The notes below the pieces were generated by a model. That model saw only the letters and a list, made by a program, of their open reading frames with translations, had not been told where the DNA came from and ran no database searches. DNA of 64,000 bases from the IMG/VR virus record IMGVR_UViG_2529292906_000009, positions 1 to 64,000 of that record. One strand, written 5' to 3'. Made by a program: the position numbers and the translations under genes. The stretch is from a virus (lineage: Duplodnaviria; Heunggongvirae; Uroviricota; Caudoviricetes). Below are positions 4,892 through 54,025 of the stretch, piece after piece (the stretch's first letter is position 1; each line of letters begins with the position of its first letter).

Positions 4892-5935
4892 TTATCTAAC
4901 GCTCGACGAGTGACTTGTGATAGCGCCGACTCCAAGCGCGTAATCAAAGAACAATCGTTGATGCATCGCCAGCCTACCGTGCGTCTTCTCCCAATTATCG
5001 CGGTCACGCTCAATATCACGCTGGCATGACTGGCACAGAGGAATAGCATAAATGTCATGCGCGCATAATCGACTATGACGAACGATATAAGGCGTAATGT
5101 GAGCGCCAGCTCCCGCAGCTCCACAGCCACAGCATGGACGGGAAGCCACAAAGTCCATGTACTCGGGCAATTTTAGCGATTGAAGTTTTGGTATTTTGAA
5201 ATGCGCCATACCTGGGTCGGAGTCAACATCCACAGGGCATACTTTTGCACGCATCGGCGCGGCGCGTTCTTCCATCATCTGAACATATGCTGTAGCGCGA
5301 TCGTCATACGGGCGAATATCCGCCTCTTTCAGAGGTCCGCTATCCTGCGGAGTAGCCTTCATCTTATTTATTGATATGCGGCAGACTTCTTCCGGCATCA
5401 GGTGCATCATGTTGCGCATGAAAGCCCACCAGCACAGCTCCTGAATACTTAAATCATGGCTATTTGAAAGGCCCATTTCCTGACGGGCGACATCCAGTAT
5501 CCAGTTAACGCGATTATTGTGCAGCGTTTCTTTCAGCTCATTAAAACCACGCATCCGGTAATGGTTATCGTGATGCCAGCACAACAACACCGCGCTATTG
5601 TCTCGTTCAGCGTGGACAATATGGTTGTCACACCAACTACGATCTGCGGCCTGGCATTGACCCTCTTTCCTACGCAACCACGCCACCAGCGCGTCAATTC
5701 CACCAATACGGCGAAACAGTTCATCGCTGTTAAAAAACGGCTGCAACGCCTCATTTGTTGCCATGGTTTGCTCGGTAACAACGAGGCCGTCTTCCATGTG
5801 CTCGATTAACTCACGCGGCACCGGCTCCATGATAAATTTACGGCCAGCCTCCACCAGCTTTCTGACCTCCTGATCCACTTTGAACGTGGCGAGGCCAAGC
5901 TCTTTCTGTACAAAGGGAGTAATTACGGCTTTCAC
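4892..5935 (-). CDS. hypothetical protein with Cys-rich C-terminal region (pdcB position)
   Basis: 347-aa ORF between doc and lpa; clustered Cys/His near the C-terminus; name only by synteny with P1. Confidence 0.5.
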
Positions 5936-7969: not shown

Positions 7970-8326
7970 ATGGCTAAAATCGAGTACCATCGCGATCGCG
8001 GTAATTACCTGGAAATATACGATCATGAATCTCTTAACGATATCAACGATGCGTTATATGAATACTGTGAAAAAACGAGCATCACAGATGCACCTGATGC
8101 ATTTGTCGAGCTACCGGTATATCTCCGCGACATCTATGCAATACGAACACCGCCCGTATCGGTGATCCACATTGGCTATGTCCGCCTGTCCATCGAAGAA
8201 GATGAAGATCGTTATATCGTGCGCCACTATACATTGGACAGAAAAGAACTTCCTAATGAATGGAACATGAGTAATTTCTACAACGGTGAATATGGCTTAA
8301 AATCCACTAATAATTTACGGTCATAA
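7970..8326 (+). CDS. hypothetical protein (118 aa), coupled to 7385..7969
   Basis: ORF starts on the stop codon of the upstream gene; no recognisable domain. Confidence 0.5.
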   Translation: MAKIEYHRDRGNYLEIYDHESLNDINDALYEYCEKTSITDAPDAFVELPVYLRDIYAIRTPPVSVIHIGYVRLSIEEDEDRYIVRHYTLDRKELPNEWNMSNFYNGEYGLKSTNNLRS

Positions 8327-9188
8327 TCTATACAGGCATGTATAACAACAACGAGCCTATTAGCTGTCAACAACGTTATTTTCTCAAATAAGAAAAAGCA
8401 GAAAACAAATTGTTTAAGGTCACAAATTGTGGCCTTGATGGAGGAGGGAGGCTTATTGGCTATGGCTAAAAATCAAATTAGACACTTCATGTTGCTGTAG
8501 CTCATCAAGATCCGAGGCCACAAAACCTTTTCCGAAAAACTTCACAAGTAACTCACTAGCCGCATCATTGTCACCTATTACACGAAAGTCATACGGCAAC
8601 GTCGCAAGTTGACGATGTAATCCTGCTGAGAAAGTCGAATCTAACAGCGACCAGAATTCCCACCGCAGGATAATACTCGCCTCTTAATACTGTATATATG
8701 TTGTTACGATATGTTTTTCTGTCTCTAAAAAAAGATGTTAATAGAATGCTAACCATTGAAGGGGATAAAAATATACAATTCCAACAAACGTTATTTTTAA
8801 CAATTTTTTTCTTTGCGTTGACTTTCCCGGACACCTTGTCTGACCGAAGGTGCGCGAAAGCCACTTTTTCCTTCCTGAGTTATCCACAAAGTTATGCACT
8901 TGCAAGAGGGCCATTTTCTACATATTGTGGTGGCTAACAGATGAAATGAATGTAGATTAATTGAAGATAAGGAGAAAATTTGAGATGCAATCATGACGTT
9001 AATAGATAGGGTCTGCATTACAGACCCCATCCGCATCAAGGAATTAGCCGTTCCCTGATGTTGTTCCGAAAACATGTGCCGTAAGCTCACGTTAACGACT
9101 TTCTTTCACCGAATCCAACTATATAGGGGTTGGGTTTCTACGTCAACGTGAGCAAGTGCTCCTTTACATTTGACAAGGAACCACCTTA

Positions 9189-9326
9189 ATGACTGCTTTT
9201 TTTCAGTTCCTGAGTGCATTTTTAGATGCGCCTGTTATTAGCCAGATTCTGGCGATCATCCTCATCATCGTTTTGATTTTGCTTTTAAGGTCAGTAAAAA
9301 ATGGAATTATGCACTGGCTTACTTAA
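9189..9326 (+). CDS. small hydrophobic peptide (45 aa), possible membrane peptide
   Basis: MTAFFQFLSAFLDAPVISQILAIILIIVLILLLRSVKNGIMHWLT; AGGA 9 nt upstream; lies in an AT-rich region without long ORFs. Confidence 0.25.
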   Translation: MTAFFQFLSAFLDAPVISQILAIILIIVLILLLRSVKNGIMHWLT

Positions 9327-9400
9327 TGTTCAGTGAAACATTAAAATCTCCTTGATGTGGAAACAATCATTTTCTGTATGTGCTGGTGGGTACCTGTAGT

Positions 9401-9757
9401 TCAGCTTTCGTTGGCATTTAACTTCGTCTTTGCTTTCTCCACCAGCAACTTCCAGATGCCTATTTCATTAGCAGCCGCCTTGATGGCGGCATAAAAAGCA
9501 TCTTGCTGATCGTAACGCTGAATCTGTTTTTTCAGTTTTGCCTCCACCAATTTAATTTCATTACGTGCTTTCTGAAGCCGAAGCGCCGCCCGGTTACGTC
9601 TGTTCTTGTATAGCGCGTTAATCTCTGACAATTGCTTTAATTTACCAGCCTGACTGCGGATTATCGCCTCTCTGACTTCTGCCGTGCGTCTCATCTGATC
9701 TCTTAAGAGTTCACCGTTTTCGATAATTCTTTCAAGGTGTTTGATGTGATCTGCAAC
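9401..9757 (-). CDS. hypothetical protein, 5' end separated from its native start by IS2
   Basis: Frame continues from native ATG-AGA-GTT at 11099-11091 across the IS2 insertion; the first 9 codons of the tracked ORF come from the IS2 end. Confidence 0.45.
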   Translation of the reverse strand, partial: VADHIKHLERIIENGELLRDQMRRTAEVREAIIRSQAGKLKQLSEINALYKNRRNRAALRLQKARNEIKLVEAKLKKQIQRYDQQDAFYAAIKAAANEIGIWKLLVEKAKTKLNANES

Positions 9758-48922: not shown

Positions 48923-48947
48923 AAAGCTCCTACGGGAGCTTTTTTTA
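48923..48947 (+). terminator. rho-independent terminator
   Basis: agctcc-tacg-ggagct hairpin followed by TTTTTT. Confidence 0.7.
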
Positions 48948-49074
48948 TAACTATTTTATATAAAAATGCATCGATAACATTGTCTGGAGTTTTATGTTAG
49001 ATTATTAATGTTCTAATAAACTACAATTATTGAGGTAGATGTTTGTGCCTGTACTGTTAAAGGGGGACTCTAAA

Positions 49075-49671
49075 ATGGCTGTGATTCCAATGTCGTACTC
49101 CCCGGGTACTGTCGCTCGTCGATTTTCGATCCTGGACGGAGTTACCATCCAGGGTGTGCTTTACCAGGTTATATGGGATTCCAAAACCCCATTTGCAGCT
49201 GTAATAGAGGCTGCGCCTTCTGTTATCGATGGTGATATGCGCCATAAGGTTGTCGCTACTCTTGAACTTCAACGTCGTCCGCAGCTTGAAGGCGTACTGG
49301 TAAGGAAGTTTTGGGAGGATAGCGATGTTGCCCAGATTGAAGGTATTGTGGTTGATGGAACTGTCCGGGATGTAGGTTTAGCTACTTTTGTTTACGAAAC
49401 CGTAGCCTCAAAAGCTGGTGTTGTTTTGCTCAGTGATAATGAGCAATACGAAGGTGGAAAAGCTCTTTGGCAACACATCGCCCGTCGCTCTTCCGAGCTA
49501 AAAGTGTTTATCCTCGACACCGATGCCGCTCAGTATTACCCGTTTGACGGCGAACGTGTTTGCTATGACGGGGTAAGTATTCCTGAATCCGAGATATGGA
49601 GTGAACACCCAGATCGAAGTAAGCATGGGGTTGTTCTGGTCGCTGAATCCATAACTGGAAAGGCGGCATAG
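49075..49671 (+). CDS. hypothetical protein (198 aa), independently transcribed
   Basis: AAGGGGGA 7 nt upstream of ATG; preceded by a terminator and a weak operator-like motif. Confidence 0.45.
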   Translation: MAVIPMSYSPGTVARRFSILDGVTIQGVLYQVIWDSKTPFAAVIEAAPSVIDGDMRHKVVATLELQRRPQLEGVLVRKFWEDSDVAQIEGIVVDGTVRDVGLATFVYETVASKAGVVLLSDNEQYEGGKALWQHIARRSSELKVFILDTDAAQYYPFDGERVCYDGVSIPESEIWSEHPDRSKHGVVLVAESITGKAA

Positions 49672-49961
49672 CAGTAAAAAATTCCTTACCCCTTAAAAGG
49701 GGAGAGGGTTAATCTACGTATGCTAAGCATAGATGTGGCCTCAGATTAATGTTAAGCGTCTTGCCGGACGCGTAATGTTATCTGGGGCTTTCTTCTGTTA
49801 TTTGTTTGAGTGCTAGGTAGCAAAGAGAGCTAGTATTCATCAGGCAAATCTATCAATAAATAGCGTTAGTTTTTGTTGTGTGTATGTTTCTTTATTGTTA
49901 TTGTGCTGTTTGTTTTTTAGGCGGCACAATTCCTATAATCTATAGAATAAAGGAAGTATAT

Positions 49962-50249
49962 ATGGCTGATGTACGCATTACTTGCATTACCCTCTCCGGC
50001 TCGCAATCAATCCATGAGCATATTACTCATGTGGGAAGTCCTCAATTTAATACTGGCAATGGGAAATGGACTGTTGAGCAGGTGATTAATGCTATTGATA
50101 ATAATCTCCATACATTCTATGTAACAGATAATGCAGGTAATCGTGTAGAAGTTGGGGTCGTTAATCCTGGTAATGGTGGAAGGCAGTTTATTAGAACGTA
50201 TGCAGACAATCGATGGAATAATAATTTACTATCGCTACCAATCTGTTAA
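49962..50249 (+). CDS. DUF3892-like small protein (95 aa), moron
   Basis: HEHITHVG...W...FYV...NNLLSLPxC pattern; AT-rich upstream region with TATAAT and AGGAAG; terminator downstream. Confidence 0.55.
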   Translation: MADVRITCITLSGSQSIHEHITHVGSPQFNTGNGKWTVEQVINAIDNNLHTFYVTDNAGNRVEVGVVNPGNGGRQFIRTYADNRWNNNLLSLPIC

Positions 50250-50260
50250 TGTAATTTTAT

Positions 50261-50295
50261 AAAAAAGGCTGCAACCTCTGTTGCAGCCTTTTTTC
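50261..50295. terminator. bidirectional rho-independent terminator
   Basis: aggctgcaac-ctct-gttgcagcct hairpin flanked by A-run and T-run. Confidence 0.75.
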
Positions 50296-50319
50296 AGCCA
50301 TTATGACTGAGATAAGCCA

Positions 50320-51330
50320 CTATAAACTCTGAACAAGACGTTCAATTGCTGCACCATATCTTTCTAATGGTTCATTATTGATTTGTGGCTCAGTGTCATG
50401 GATCTGATATCTGCCGGGTTTTATATCAAATAGAGGTCTTCCTAGATGGGAAGATACTATAGCTACGGAATGGTTATCTGGCACAGTAAACGTTTTTAAA
50501 TTTCCGCCTTGGAACGCTGTTGGTTTATTCGTCCGCAGATTTTCAGCTCTATCCCTGATTTCGTCGAACATTGCCGAAAACGCTTTACTTGCTCGTTTGT
50601 CATACTCTGTCGAACGATTAAAAACTAGAGAATGAATGACAGGAACCGCTAGACCAAACTGTTGACACCGATCGTAAAAGTTAACAGAACGATAATCGTT
50701 TTGTACTCCAACGCCATAAACCAACTGGCTTAGGTTATCCACTGCTCGAGCCGAAGAACCATCACTTGAGCAAGGTATTATAATTGCATTTGCTGCTATC
50801 AGTGATAGTTCGGTATAGGCAGAGAAACTGGGGTTGCAATCAATAAAGCAAATGGTTTCTTCGATACCTTGTTGTTGTGCACATGCAACAAGCAAATCTC
50901 GTAGCCACAGGTGGATGCTTTTCCATGAGTCAACTGGTAAGTTTACGCTGCTTAACTGATTGATTACTTGCGCCTGAACTTCCAGGCTTGGGTCGCCTGC
51001 AATCAAAAATACATTGTCAGGGACATGCCCGTTAATTTCAGAGACATGAATTAAGAAACTTGTTTCTGAACCGGTAAGCATGTGGGGGCTGCGAGTTCTT
51101 CTGTCAAAGTACCCACCGACAGTTTTTCGTTGTTGAATTAAGCTCGCGAGGTTAGCAGCACCAGTACCGTTACCGCCGAGCAATATTTCAGATAAGTTAG
51201 CCTGCGGACACATATCTGCAAAAATAATACGCTTTTCTGGATTTTGCCTTGCGTATTCACAGGCCATAGCGAAAGATAAGTAGGTCTTTCCTACGCCACC
51301 TTTATTATTCCAAATAGCATACGATTTCAT
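50320..51330 (-). CDS. orphan ParA/MinD-family ATPase with C-terminal extension
   Basis: Deviant Walker A AIWNNKGGVGKT; no adjacent ParB-like gene. Confidence 0.6.
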   Translation of the reverse strand: MKSYAIWNNKGGVGKTYLSFAMACEYARQNPEKRIIFADMCPQANLSEILLGGNGTGAANLASLIQQRKTVGGYFDRRTRSPHMLTGSETSFLIHVSEINGHVPDNVFLIAGDPSLEVQAQVINQLSSVNLPVDSWKSIHLWLRDLLVACAQQQGIEETICFIDCNPSFSAYTELSLIAANAIIIPCSSDGSSARAVDNLSQLVYGVGVQNDYRSVNFYDRCQQFGLAVPVIHSLVFNRSTEYDKRASKAFSAMFDEIRDRAENLRTNKPTAFQGGNLKTFTVPDNHSVAIVSSHLGRPLFDIKPGRYQIHDTEPQINNEPLERYGAAIERLVQSL

Positions 51331-51638
51331 GGTATCCCCGGCGTTATCTGCTGTTTGTGTGCCAGCATAAGTCATTATGCATCTCCATTACTATCCATGA
51401 ATTGAGTCAAAAAATATGTAAAAGTAGCAATGTATCACTCTTTTACTCATTATAAACGTTACAAGTTGTGATGGTTAGCTGTGTTTTTATCAGTACAAGT
51501 TTTGATCTGGCTTTGGGTTTTTATATATGGATATGTCTCAAAGATGCCCTGCAAAAGCGATCGCTAACTGTAAAAAATCAGATTGCATCTCCGACCTCAA
51601 ACTGAAAACGCCAGGTGACTCCAGATTAGAGCAATCTA

Positions 51639-51908
51639 TCACCCTCTGAATCCTGCCGGTATACCCCATTGTTCGTTATCTTTATTTTTGGCTAAAACCG
51701 CATTAAGAGCTTCGTTTACCGTCATGCAATGCGGCAGATTATCGAAGTTTGATATCCCGCCAATATCAGGAGAACGCTTGTCCTTCAGGTAAGCATATTT
51801 CCGCGCTGCCGCCTCTACTTTCTGCTTGAACTCATGTTTTTGAGCGCGTTTTTTGGATAACCGCAGATTGTCAGCCTTTGCTTTTGCCTCAGCGATCCAT
51901 GAAGTCAA
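51639..51908 (-). CDS. small hypothetical protein
   Basis: 89-aa ORF downstream of the repL-like gene. Confidence 0.4.
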   Translation of the reverse strand: MTSWIAEAKAKADNLRLSKKRAQKHEFKQKVEAAARKYAYLKDKRSPDIGGISNFDNLPHCMTVNEALNAVLAKNKDNEQWGIPAGFRG

Positions 51909-52483
51909 TTTTTTGAGTCTGGTCGTTCCGGCACCGCCGGAAACTGATCTTTTTGTTTTTTAACTTGTGACTTCTTATTCTTTATTGCCACGTCATCCTG
52001 ACAGGGGGAGGGGGTATCATTTTGACATGGGGGTGTGGATAAAAAATTAAATAAAGCCAATGTCTTAGCGAGAACAGCTTTAACCTTGGTTGCCGCTGAA
52101 GAGATCTTTAATTTGCTTTCAATCAGCGCATTTTTGGCTTGTTGTGCGAAGGCCAAAAAGGATGGTGTAAACCGGTACAGGTTAGCGCGACGTTCACGGT
52201 GATCGCCGATAACAATCTCTACAGACAGGATTCCTTTGTTTACAGCTTCACGGAATGCACGAACGACGGTTGATTGGCTATAACCAGTTTCTGCCGCGAT
52301 CAGGCGGTGAGGCTTGTGAATGAAGTATTCACTGGTTGTTGCCGCGAGATTTGCACATTGCGACAGGATATGCCAGGCGCTACGGGATAGACCGGAGTGT
52401 GTTACAAAGCAGGCCAATTCATAGCCAGAAAAAGTAAAATCGCTCATCGTTATACAGCTCAGGAAAGTGACTTTAGCCAGCAT
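51905..52483 (-). CDS. HTH protein, RepL-like (lytic replicon position)
   Basis: HTH YSQSTVVRAFREAVNKGIL; sits downstream of kilA as P1 repL does, but is shorter than recalled RepL. Confidence 0.4.
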   Translation of the reverse strand: MLAKVTFLSCITMSDFTFSGYELACFVTHSGLSRSAWHILSQCANLAATTSEYFIHKPHRLIAAETGYSQSTVVRAFREAVNKGILSVEIVIGDHRERRANLYRFTPSFLAFAQQAKNALIESKLKISSAATKVKAVLAKTLALFNFLSTPPCQNDTPSPCQDDVAIKNKKSQVKKQKDQFPAVPERPDSKN

Positions 52484-52512: not shown

Positions 52513-53075
52513 TTAGCGCGTTGCCGCGACAGGTACCAGCACACCAGCATCAAGCAATCGCTTCATCAGCCACTGCTGACCCTTGCCGGTTATACGAGTC
52601 GTGAAAGAAATCCTGCTTCCATTGCTTGTATCGATCACGGTTTCTTTAAGGGTGAAATACCCACGGGATATGTATTCTTGTTTGGGGACGTTCCTGCGTT
52701 CACCGGTTGCGATCAGAATTCCGTTATCACGCAACCAGGTGAAGAGATAGTTTTGGCCCAGGCCGAGCACTTTGGCATAGTTGCCGATTAGAACCCCGCT
52801 GGCGGTAGCAACGCGTTCGGCGAATTCGACTTTAGGTGCATCCATAAGCATTTTTTGCTCCAGCCGTTGCTTTTGCTCTGCCAGGTCGGCAGCCAAACGG
52901 AGAGCTTCAGGGAGACTCTGCGGAATAGCAGGTTGTAATCTTCCGGCTCGATAGTCGATAAATGTCTGGTTTACCTTCAGCCGAAACGCGGGAGAAATCC
53001 AGCCTGCGTACTCCACAGCGAGCAATTCATGGGCAAAAGTGCCGCCGCCACGGCCTTCGAACGAAACTATGCAAT
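52513..53075 (-). pseudogene. kilA: kilA C-terminal fragment (ANT/KilA-C domain), separated from its N-terminus by IS200
   Basis: KilA-N tail ...GGGTFAHELLAVEYAGWISPAF plus ANT-C-like domain; 5' end abuts the IS200-like element. Confidence 0.55.
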
Positions 53076-53079
53076 TCTG

Positions 53080-53800
53080 CATAGTTTCTTTTTGTGCACA
53101 GAAAACCCCCAGCTAGGCTGGGGGTTCCGGAAAGCTTTCAGCTTTGAGCCAGTTATTAAAACCCCTTTTGATTTGTTAAAACACCTTGCGGTCTGGCAAC
53201 TGCAAGTGTCAAACAAGAAATCAAAAGGGGGTCCCAATGGGGAACGAAAAGAGCTTAGCGCACACCCGATGGAACTGTAAATATCACATAGTTTTTGCGC
53301 CAAAATACCGAAGACAAGTGTTCTACAGAGAGAAACGTAGAGCAATAGGCAGTATTTTGAGAAAGCTGTGCGAGTGGAAAAGCGTACGGATTCTTGAAGC
53401 TGAATGCTGTGCAGATCATATCCATATGCTTGTGGAGATCCCGCCCAAAATGAGCGTATCCGGCTTTATGGGATATCTGAAAGGGAAAAGCAGTCTGATG
53501 CTTTACGAGCAGTTTGGTGATTTGAAATTCAAATACAGGAACAGGGAGTTCTGGTGCAGAGGGTACTACGTCGATACGGTGGGTAAGAACACGGCGAAGA
53601 TACAGGATTACATAAAGCACCAGCTTGAAGAGGATAAAATGGGAGAGCAGTTATCGATTCCCTATCCGGGCAGCCCGTTTACGGGCCGTAAGTAACGAAG
53701 TTGGATGCAAATGTCAGATCGTGTGCGCCTGTTAGGGCGCGGCTGGTAAGAGAGCCTTATAGGCGCATTTGAAAAACCTCCGGCTATGCCGGAGGATATT
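53080..53800 (+). mobile_element. IS200-like element (IS200/IS605 family), boundaries approximate
   Basis: Y1 transposase gene preceded by a perfect hairpin aacccccagc-tagg-ctgggggtt; about 709 bp would restore the kilA frame. Confidence 0.7.
53237..53695 (+). CDS. tnpA: IS200 transposase TnpA (Y1 HuH, 152 aa)
   Basis: MGNEKSLAHTRWNCKYHIVFAPKYRR... recognised as IS200-type TnpA with HxH and catalytic Tyr region. Confidence 0.85.
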   Translation: MGNEKSLAHTRWNCKYHIVFAPKYRRQVFYREKRRAIGSILRKLCEWKSVRILEAECCADHIHMLVEIPPKMSVSGFMGYLKGKSSLMLYEQFGDLKFKYRNREFWCRGYYVDTVGKNTAKIQDYIKHQLEEDKMGEQLSIPYPGSPFTGRK

Positions 53801-53804
53801 TATT

Positions 53805-54025
53805 TCAAGCTCTTCGATGAGCTGTTTTGCTGACAGCGTTCTTAGCCATTGAGCTGGCGCTTTATGGGCACCGAGTCCGCTCGCTCTGTGTAGAGCATTA
53901 AGGTTGTAACGGCCAGCGCGGTCGGTCGTAATTTCAACACCACAAATAACGGGCAGAGTGGTTGAAGGATCGACATTTTGATGAAGGTTTGATATATTCA
54001 TATCCGCATTGAATGTTTGTTGCAT
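53805..54025 (-). pseudogene. kilA: kilA N-terminal fragment (KilA-N domain)
   Basis: KilA-N motifs GRYNLNALHRASGLG...AQWLR...LIEELE; ORF then reads into IS200 sequence. Confidence 0.55.

Follow-up and report, generated by a model that had tools for sequence, protein, structure and literature searches.

The three genes that lie between bplB and repL in a P1-like phage-plasmid from the IMG/VR collection very probably represent mosaic cargo rather than a system or a partition module. The DNA analysed comprises the first 64,000 nucleotides of record IMGVR_UViG_2529292906_000009 (Caudoviricetes; hereafter the window). The genes, which a first-pass annotation of this sequence had grouped as one island, encode a 198-aa protein (49075..49671, + strand; 210 aa from an alternative ATG at 49039), a stand-alone 95-aa DUF3892 protein (49962..50249, +) and a ParA/Soj-type ATPase (50320..51375, −, or 50320..51330 from an internal start). 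All three open reading frames (ORFs) are present as annotated. However, their distributions among plasmids are nested and differ (125 against 42 plasmids), and the 198-aa gene is a homologue of P1 pmgF, suggesting independent single-gene units, unrelated accessory cargo rather than one system. The locus is an ordinary accessory-gene hotspot for a phage-plasmid, and recognizing it as such guards against a joint annotation of three unrelated genes as a single 'system'. What makes it worth attention is the family of the ATPase, orphan ParA proteins that are strongly conserved and found repeatedly in a post-repressor slot and as passengers of insertion sequences (IS).

Assignment of the window to a P1-like phage-plasmid agrees with an identity to P1 of 98% across bplB and repL, with 13 matches to the P1 C1 operator consensus (up to three mismatches; 0.3 expected by chance), and with the nearest database records, which are E. 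coli and E. fergusonii plasmids of 75–100 kb. The late operon (gene 22, gene 21, pmgG, bplB) and the kilA–repL operon converge on a variable region at 48946-51624. On its left edge, blastn homology to P1 stops at 48945, within the intrinsic terminator that follows bplB (48923..48950, + strand; terminator scan, fold z −4.4). On its right edge homology restarts at 51625, and the P1 recombination breakpoint falls within the C1 operator Orlf (the former Op55 of P1), which the P1 annotation places just after the repL stop (51619-51635, −). Orlf is half-conserved: its first 11 nt (ATTGCTCTAAT) are kept and just 11 of 17 consensus positions match, which is why it is missing from the operators with up to three mismatches.

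Comparison with P1, 673R5, SJ46 and the P1 variant MH422554 places breakpoints at 48945/48946, 49796/49797, 51538/51539 and 51624/51625. Homology to 673R5 and SJ46 continues from the left through the 198-aa gene up to 49796-49803, while on the right it restarts at 51539 in the comparisons with 673R5 and MH422554, and not before 51672 with SJ46. Because the breakpoints differ among these three relatives, the cassette is nested. Its left module consists of the 198-aa gene and a 90-bp stump of a hok/sok leader, and its right module is a 1742-bp block with the DUF3892 and ATPase genes (49797..51538), which is missing from P1-like relatives having both flanks. A small membrane-protein gene that is whole in MH422554 is cut off where the block went in, and direct reading finds a stump of 16 codons (51538..51588, −). 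The same site is occupied by pmgF, rlfB and rlfA in P1, by rapA, rapB and upf52.1 in P7, by an IS605-family orfB in RCS47, and in MH422554 by just an intact hok/mok and the small membrane-protein gene. These arrangements point to a replacement hotspot, a swap-in cargo slot filled by nested replacements.

The distribution of the genes confirms the earlier view that this is an accessory region and not part of the P1-like core. In PLSDB, bplB is carried by 680 plasmids, the 198-aa gene by 125 and the DUF3892–ATPase block by 42; among 5426 complete E. coli genomes the block occurs in 39, each time on a plasmid. None of the three genes is core in P1-like plasmids. The AT-shift relative to the flanks was also read correctly: the block has a GC content of 39.7%, the lowest among all 1742-bp windows of the stretch (mean 47.9%, sd 2.5). 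The DUF3892 and ATPase genes would have arrived together as this 1.74-kb low-GC block in one sub-lineage. Among the features that define a moron, terminators, atypical composition and variable presence are seen, and the promoters are TATAAT boxes read by eye that a consensus scanner does not list. The three genes had been described as separately terminated units, which stands for the DUF3892 and ATPase genes and fails for the 198-aa gene, after which a hairpin without a U tract is found, not a canonical intrinsic terminator. The other two genes converge on a common bidirectional intrinsic terminator (50261..50294, both strands), a perfect 15-bp inverted repeat between A6 and T6 that folds with −22.4 and −23.2 kcal/mol on the two strands (z −5.8 and −6.4 relative to shuffled sequences).

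This common terminator, together with the single 1742-bp block and its shared breakpoints, would suit a two-gene functional module acquired as a unit, such as a sensor or regulator with an NTPase. Moreover, wherever one of the two is found, in 42 PLSDB plasmids and 39 E. coli genomes, the other is found as well, and published predictions link DUF3892 to defence (10.1101/2022.04.27.489752; PMC12419801). Yet the co-occurring copies are 98–100% identical, so the 42 of 42 count as one event, and the pairing reflects one acquisition. We looked at ATPase loci outside the P1 lineage, 161 in total (80 genome loci, 72 non-P1 viral loci and nine contigs obtained by exact protein look-up). A six-frame search with hidden Markov models found a DUF3892 or 198-aa homologue in none of the 161, and the ATPase is absent from all nine DUF3892 loci. 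The genes are moreover convergent, each with its own upstream region, and the closest relatives of the ATPase (70–92% identity) stand beside cI without DUF3892. A functional pairing of this kind is very improbable, and we retain the reading of separate cargo genes that share one insertion history.

The ATPase gene encodes 351 aa from the ATG at 51375 and 336 aa from the ATG at 51330. Most homologues begin at the position of the second ATG. In the closest prophage copies the upstream ATG is kept, as are its GGAGA and a 15-aa leader of variable sequence, and because of this the 351-aa form is favoured in this subclade. Nucleotide homology between the window and prophage copies is confined to the coding sequence. 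The gene is monocistronic, located between the terminator and a 263-bp intergenic region, where a candidate −10 box TATAAT can be read by eye about 75 nt upstream of the start (51449..51454, −). This putative promoter has a poor −35 element and is not reported by the consensus scanner.

Its membership of the ParA/MinD family, claimed from the sequence at first pass, is borne out by Pfam matches to AAA_31 (56 bits) and CbiA/ParA (30 bits), both above the cut-offs. The deviant Walker A motif NNKGGVGKT (residues 8–16 of the 336-aa form), with its signature lysine and the KGGVGKT core, is invariant in 20 homologues. The motif DMCPQAN and the Walker B motif DCNPS are likewise found, and all nucleotide-binding motifs are intact. 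NCBIfam gives sub-threshold matches only (ParA, BcsQ and RepA), confined to the Walker A region. An AlphaFold2 (AF2) model of the protein has a predicted local distance difference test score (pLDDT) of 89.3, and Foldseek matches it to ParA, Soj, McdA and MinD with E values of 1.6e-12 to 1e-7 and target-normalised TM-scores of up to 0.76. The closest solved structure by sequence is the uncharacterised DIP2308 (PDB 3pg5).

A C-terminal extension of roughly 100 aa had been proposed for this protein. The alignments do not bear this out: the PHROG ParA profile aligns residues 5–333, the Foldseek alignments to the 250-aa Soj and ParA span the whole chain, and sequence alignments to PDB entries put the extra length in insertions on either side of Walker B. 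A search of 1.84 billion representative sequences with the last 92 residues returned only fragments of the ATPase family, and the idea that these residues form a separate domain was ruled out on the ground that they match only within that family. Long proteins (392–1506 aa; P0375, P0390, P0391, P0401) show three to seven repeated matches to residues about 27–74 of the C-terminal segment, which could reflect a repeat protein or a compositional artefact.

The ParA/Soj fold and the intact motifs raise the question of whether the ATPase provides a second means of positioning or partition, serving the plasmid prophage or the products of lytic replication through nucleoid binding without a dedicated ParB. 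Its place immediately after repL, which in P1 belongs to rlfA and rlfB (the 'replication-linked function' slot), would fit such a role, and the authors of the Pseudomonas phage phi297 study, who noted a parA without parB, speculated about plasmid maintenance (PMC3564109). Against this, no ParB-like or other adaptor gene adjoins the ATPase in the window, and no centromere-like repeat array is found between 48900 and 51700, where only short two-copy matches occur; the absence of a ParB partner was noted correctly at first pass. The element has its own complete type Ia partition locus, also recognised at that stage, with a parA that includes a helix-turn-helix (HTH) domain (41147-42358) and parB (42355-43320), in addition to the replicon gene repA (39893-40753). 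With hhalign, the ATPase aligns to this ParA only around Walker B, and the two are distant relatives. Furthermore, 638 of the 680 bplB-carrying plasmids lack the ATPase, and most members of its family belong to chromosomes, integrated prophages or IS elements, settings in which partition plays no part. Because the element has its own parA–parB, the ATPase is unlikely to be a partition motor, as had been argued before, and we consider such a second positioning role improbable. Identity with P1 ppfA was also considered and dropped: the window has no second ParA-like ORF of the ATPase family, and the ORF at the position of ppfA (37697-38542) has no Pfam match.

Beyond P1-like plasmids, the ATPase family is widespread and patchy. 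It counts more than 4500 homologues, with sequences from E. coli, Acidobacteriota, Desulfovibrionaceae and Patescibacteria that are 55–60% identical, and tblastn matches in archaeal metagenome-assembled genomes (MAGs) are 51–55% identical. It is nevertheless rare, with 344 confirmed matches in a one-genome-per-species collection. About 90 alignment columns are invariant in 20 sequences from different phyla. No functional study of the family was found in the searchable literature.

We clustered all ORFs up to 3.5 kb from the ATPase in 80 genome loci, and up to 2.5 kb from it in 80 viral loci. No conserved partner emerges; what recurs is limited to transposases and, from lambdoid immunity regions, the CI, Cro, CII and replication genes. 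The flanks of 79 non-duplicate genome loci contain mainly unrelated housekeeping genes and roughly 10% defence genes, with transposases as the sole recurrent families; Pfam and PADLOC scans of the flanks covered 143 proteins. Among viral loci, counted as 72 non-P1 IMG/VR contigs, a CI-type repressor (median 237 aa) is encoded on the same strand, at most 900 bp upstream of the ATPase, in 58, with divergent genes for Cro, CII and replication on the opposite side. The cI-adjacent closest relatives mentioned above (contigs L005, L096, L097 and L100) share this arrangement, which also recurs in a subfamily only 35–37% identical and in phage phi297, where the gene likewise lies downstream of a CI-type repressor.

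The slot downstream of cI is one in which exclusion genes such as lambda rexAB are found, and modulation of the lysis–lysogeny switch has been proposed for lambda RexA. The same-strand position beside cI in 58 of the 72 non-P1 viral loci, across subfamilies only 35–92% identical, could accordingly mean that the ATPase modulates the lysis–lysogeny switch of its phage. Members of the family, however, are also IS passengers and, in bacterial and archaeal chromosomes, solitary genes; these have no repressor in their vicinity, and the window ATPase lies far from c1 and has no HTH domain. We find a regulatory role of this sort unlikely.

The second recurrent context is that of transposases. A DDE transposase gene lies within 120 bp of the ATPase gene in 17 of the 80 genome loci. 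In one MAG we observe three copies of a 2272-bp IS1595-family element composed of the ATPase and a convergent transposase (L069, L070 and L071; 7883-10154 in each), bounded by 23-bp inverted repeats and with distinct 8-bp target duplications. An identical ATPase frameshift is present in all three copies, which could be genuine or stem from a systematic error of assembly. In locus L039 (7870-9340), the ATPase stands alone between perfect 20-bp inverted repeats (GGTAGTGGGCCAGTTTGATT), and L063 (7237-9390) has a near-identical repeat together with a DDE transposase; L039 may thus be a non-autonomous passenger element. The literature on passengers of IS1595 elements yielded nothing usable.

From these elements one could suppose that the ATPase is a transposition accessory, an ATP-dependent binder of target DNA that works with a DDE transposase, and that the window copy is an IS relic. 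The location inside IS1595-family inverted repeats with target duplications and the transposase adjacent in 17 of 80 genome loci speak for it. The remaining 63 genome loci and all prophage and P1 copies are without a transposase, and neither a transposase nor flanking inverted repeats are found around the window ATPase; for lack of such repeats, the possibility that this copy is an IS remnant was discarded. The frameshift shared by the three IS copies suggests that transposition proceeds without the ATPase, with the reservation that it could be a systematic assembly error. We give a transposition role hardly any credence, and regard the IS elements, like the phage-plasmid, as carriers of the ATPase.

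Taken together, these contexts suggest a role for the ATPase in mobile-element conflict or exclusion, which we put forward tentatively. Lysogens or plasmid-carrying cells would produce the protein from a TATAAT promoter of its own, and read-through from kilA–repL would possibly add to its expression. It would form the ATP-sandwich dimer typical of ParA proteins, and the dimer would bind DNA, or else a conserved component of the cell or of an invader, to the benefit of the carrier element. The likeliest benefit would be interference with competing phages or plasmids, by exclusion or defence. Such a role is favoured because the post-cI slot is known to hold exclusion genes such as rexAB and because the family keeps its complete ATP-sandwich machinery; since both IS elements and a phage-plasmid carry the ATPase, the role would be independent of host or partner. 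We lean slightly towards the explanation as a whole, in which a mosaic cargo slot is combined with a lysogen-expressed ATPase that acts in mobile-element conflicts. More speculatively still, the family may be an undescribed kind of single-gene mobile-element cargo, a conserved ATP-driven switch across bacteria and archaea that binds DNA or a partner, is expressed by phages from the repressor operon, is carried by IS elements and phage-plasmids, and excludes or destabilises competing phages or plasmids.

Several observations weigh against this proposal. The 198-aa protein, the DUF3892 protein, the ATPase and five diverged members of ATPase subgroups have no match in PADLOC-DB 2.0.0 (5027 models), and PADLOC run on all window proteins gives no defence-system match, in line with the first-pass statement that no named defence system is recognisable here. 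No report of ParA-like ATPases in anti-phage defence was found in the literature. Defence genes are just mildly enriched beside the ATPase, most neighbours being housekeeping genes. The very high conservation of the ATPase is unlike that of fast-evolving defence sensors, and a toxic effector activity is not evident for a ParA fold. In addition, the window ATPase does not adjoin c1, and its expression in the lysogen is a prediction, both promoters of the block being unlisted by the scanner. As DUF3892 and the ATPase co-occur in every plasmid having either (42/42), a lineage-limited functional pairing is conceivable. Finally, the functions proposed for all genes of the locus are read from sequence.

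It might also be asked whether the genes are neutral hitch-hikers without a current function in this plasmid. The element looks partly decayed, with a frameshift in repL, a kilA gene split by an IS200-family insertion and the hok/sok stump, and the ATPase is interrupted in 2 of the 42 block-carrying plasmids. All three ORFs are nevertheless intact in nearly all carriers, and the roughly 90 invariant ATPase columns across phyla are hard to reconcile with neutrality, which we consider quite improbable. If the ATPase indeed acts in mobile-element conflicts, it would add a role outside partition and positioning to the uses known for ParA-type ATPases, and would provide a testable single-gene candidate in P1-like plasmids of E. 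coli, in Serratia and Pseudomonas prophages and in many environmental lineages.

The 95-aa product of the second gene is a full-length DUF3892 protein, as its first description as DUF3892-like had anticipated (Pfam PF13031, E 2.3e-15, 57.3 bits against a cut-off of 22.3, profile positions 1–71 of 71; phrog_8224). The family alignment has invariant Cys8 and Cys95 and the motif H-E-H-I-T-H-V-G, which together with the cysteines is a possible metal site. The TATAAT and AGGAAG signals reported ahead of the gene are both there on direct reading. The TATAAT (49934-49939) is the −10 box of a candidate sigma-70 promoter (49910..49939, +) recognised by eye, in which a weak −35 element, TTGTTT, precedes it by 18 nt; it is missing from the output of the consensus scanner. 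The −10 box and the region of the ribosome-binding site overlap with a 26-bp palindrome (49930-49955; TTCCTATAATCTATAGAATAAAGGAA), a possible target of a regulator.

The stand-alone form of 95 aa occurs commonly in Enterobacterales and also outside them, and homologues are found as solitary, oppositely oriented genes at the ends of prophages or satellite-like elements. In a Salmonella integrative and conjugative element (L090-L092, 5001-6357), a homologue lies directly upstream of a gene for an FRG protein that matches the candidate defence system PDC-S15. An E. coli homologue (L086-L089, around 5001-5288) is located between a truncated and a full major-capsid gene (Phage_cap_E), with genes for SSB, a D5_N primase and AlpA adjoining; the arrangement resembles a satellite with capsid genes that has inserted next to a lambdoid prophage. 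In the literature, the only mention of DUF3892 is as a predicted defence-linked domain, for which an RNA- or ribosome-sensing role is a prediction only (10.1101/2022.04.27.489752; PMC12419801).

The 198-aa protein had been described as lacking any recognisable domain. We find that its N-terminal ~65 residues are homologous to P1 PmgF (E 2.5e-12) and that the gene occupies the position of pmgF in P1. On account of this homology at the same position, the protein is best read as an extended PmgF with a divergent GNAT fold, and not as an orphan of foreign origin. The Pfam Acetyltransf_1 profile scores 14 bits (E 0.065), below its cut-off of 20.7. The acetyl-CoA motif A, R-x-x-G-x-A (R98-D-V-G101-L-A103), is present and invariant; catalysis is putative. 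The AF2 model has a pLDDT of 75, and Foldseek returned no significant match for it. Type II toxin–antitoxin pairs with a GNAT toxin (AtaT/TacT-like) have a small antitoxin gene next to the toxin gene, and none adjoins the 198-aa gene.

The family of this protein is limited to Enterobacteriaceae, and the gene is semi-conserved among P1-like plasmids. A chromosomal homologue that is 88% identical stands at the end of P4-like satellites with AlpA and DUF3987 genes (L103-L106, 5001-7321). It is convergent with the gene for a 545-aa protein without a Pfam or PADLOC match, and the two may form a two-gene cargo.

Between the 198-aa gene and the block lies a feature that the first-pass annotation overlooked, a 90-bp remnant of a type I toxin–antitoxin locus of hok/sok (mokW) type (49707..49796, −), corresponding to the 5′ leader and sok region. 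By blastn it matches mok/mokW of Rac and of Stx phages, and it is 96.7% identical to the leader of the whole mokW locus found at the same site in MH422554. No hok ORF of at least 20 aa is present in the remnant, and the Rfam sok model scores 20 bits, below its gathering score of 59. An Rfam scan of the region gave sub-threshold matches only, mainly terminator look-alikes. The locus thus appears dead, its toxin lost.

To the right of the variable region, repL (51639-52483) consists of two ORFs of 192 and 89 aa, split by a 1-nt deletion relative to P1 repL at gene position 522. This frameshift may be common in the lineage, as related plasmid records often annotate just an 'HTH domain' protein. 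The adjacent kilA (52513-54025) is broken up by an IS200-family transposase gene (Y1_Tnp, 53237-53695) into a KilA-N N-terminal part (53732-54025) and a C-terminal part with an ANT domain (52513-53082). The repL frameshift and the kilA interruption suggest that the lytic replicon is decaying. Elsewhere in the window, a second low-GC stretch at about 8000-9750 (38–42% GC, against the 48% mean) is possibly another cargo insertion.

The window ATPase shares with ParA, Soj and McdA the fold, the signature-lysine Walker A, the DxxPQxN switch and the DCxPS Walker B, and follows the same order of secondary structure elements to the C-terminal helix. It differs by about 80 extra residues, present as internal insertions over the roughly 250-aa Soj, and its family has no ParB, McdB or MinE-like partner gene or centromere repeats and travels alone in phages and IS elements. 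In phages, the ATPase gene resembles lambda rexAB, and BTP1 bstA, reportedly a further gene of the post-repressor slot, in being co-oriented right after a CI-type repressor and variably present; the window copy departs from this in not adjoining c1. Relatives inside inverted repeats with 8-bp target duplications resemble passenger genes of IS1595-family elements, whereas the window copy is located in a phage-plasmid hotspot, with neither transposase nor inverted repeats.

The DUF3892 protein has the same Pfam domain as those in predicted defence contexts (CapH/CapP-associated operons and Min-Wnt fusions), and here it is a stand-alone protein of 95 aa with no effector fusion and no CapH/CapP regulator. 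The 198-aa protein is twice as long as P1 PmgF and has a GNAT core. The locus as a whole corresponds to the pmgF–rlfB–rlfA region of P1 and the rapA–rapB region of P7, with which it shares the location between bplB and repL and the Orlf half-site at the right edge; in comparison with P1, a DUF3892 gene and a ParA-like ATPase gene here replace rlfA and rlfB.

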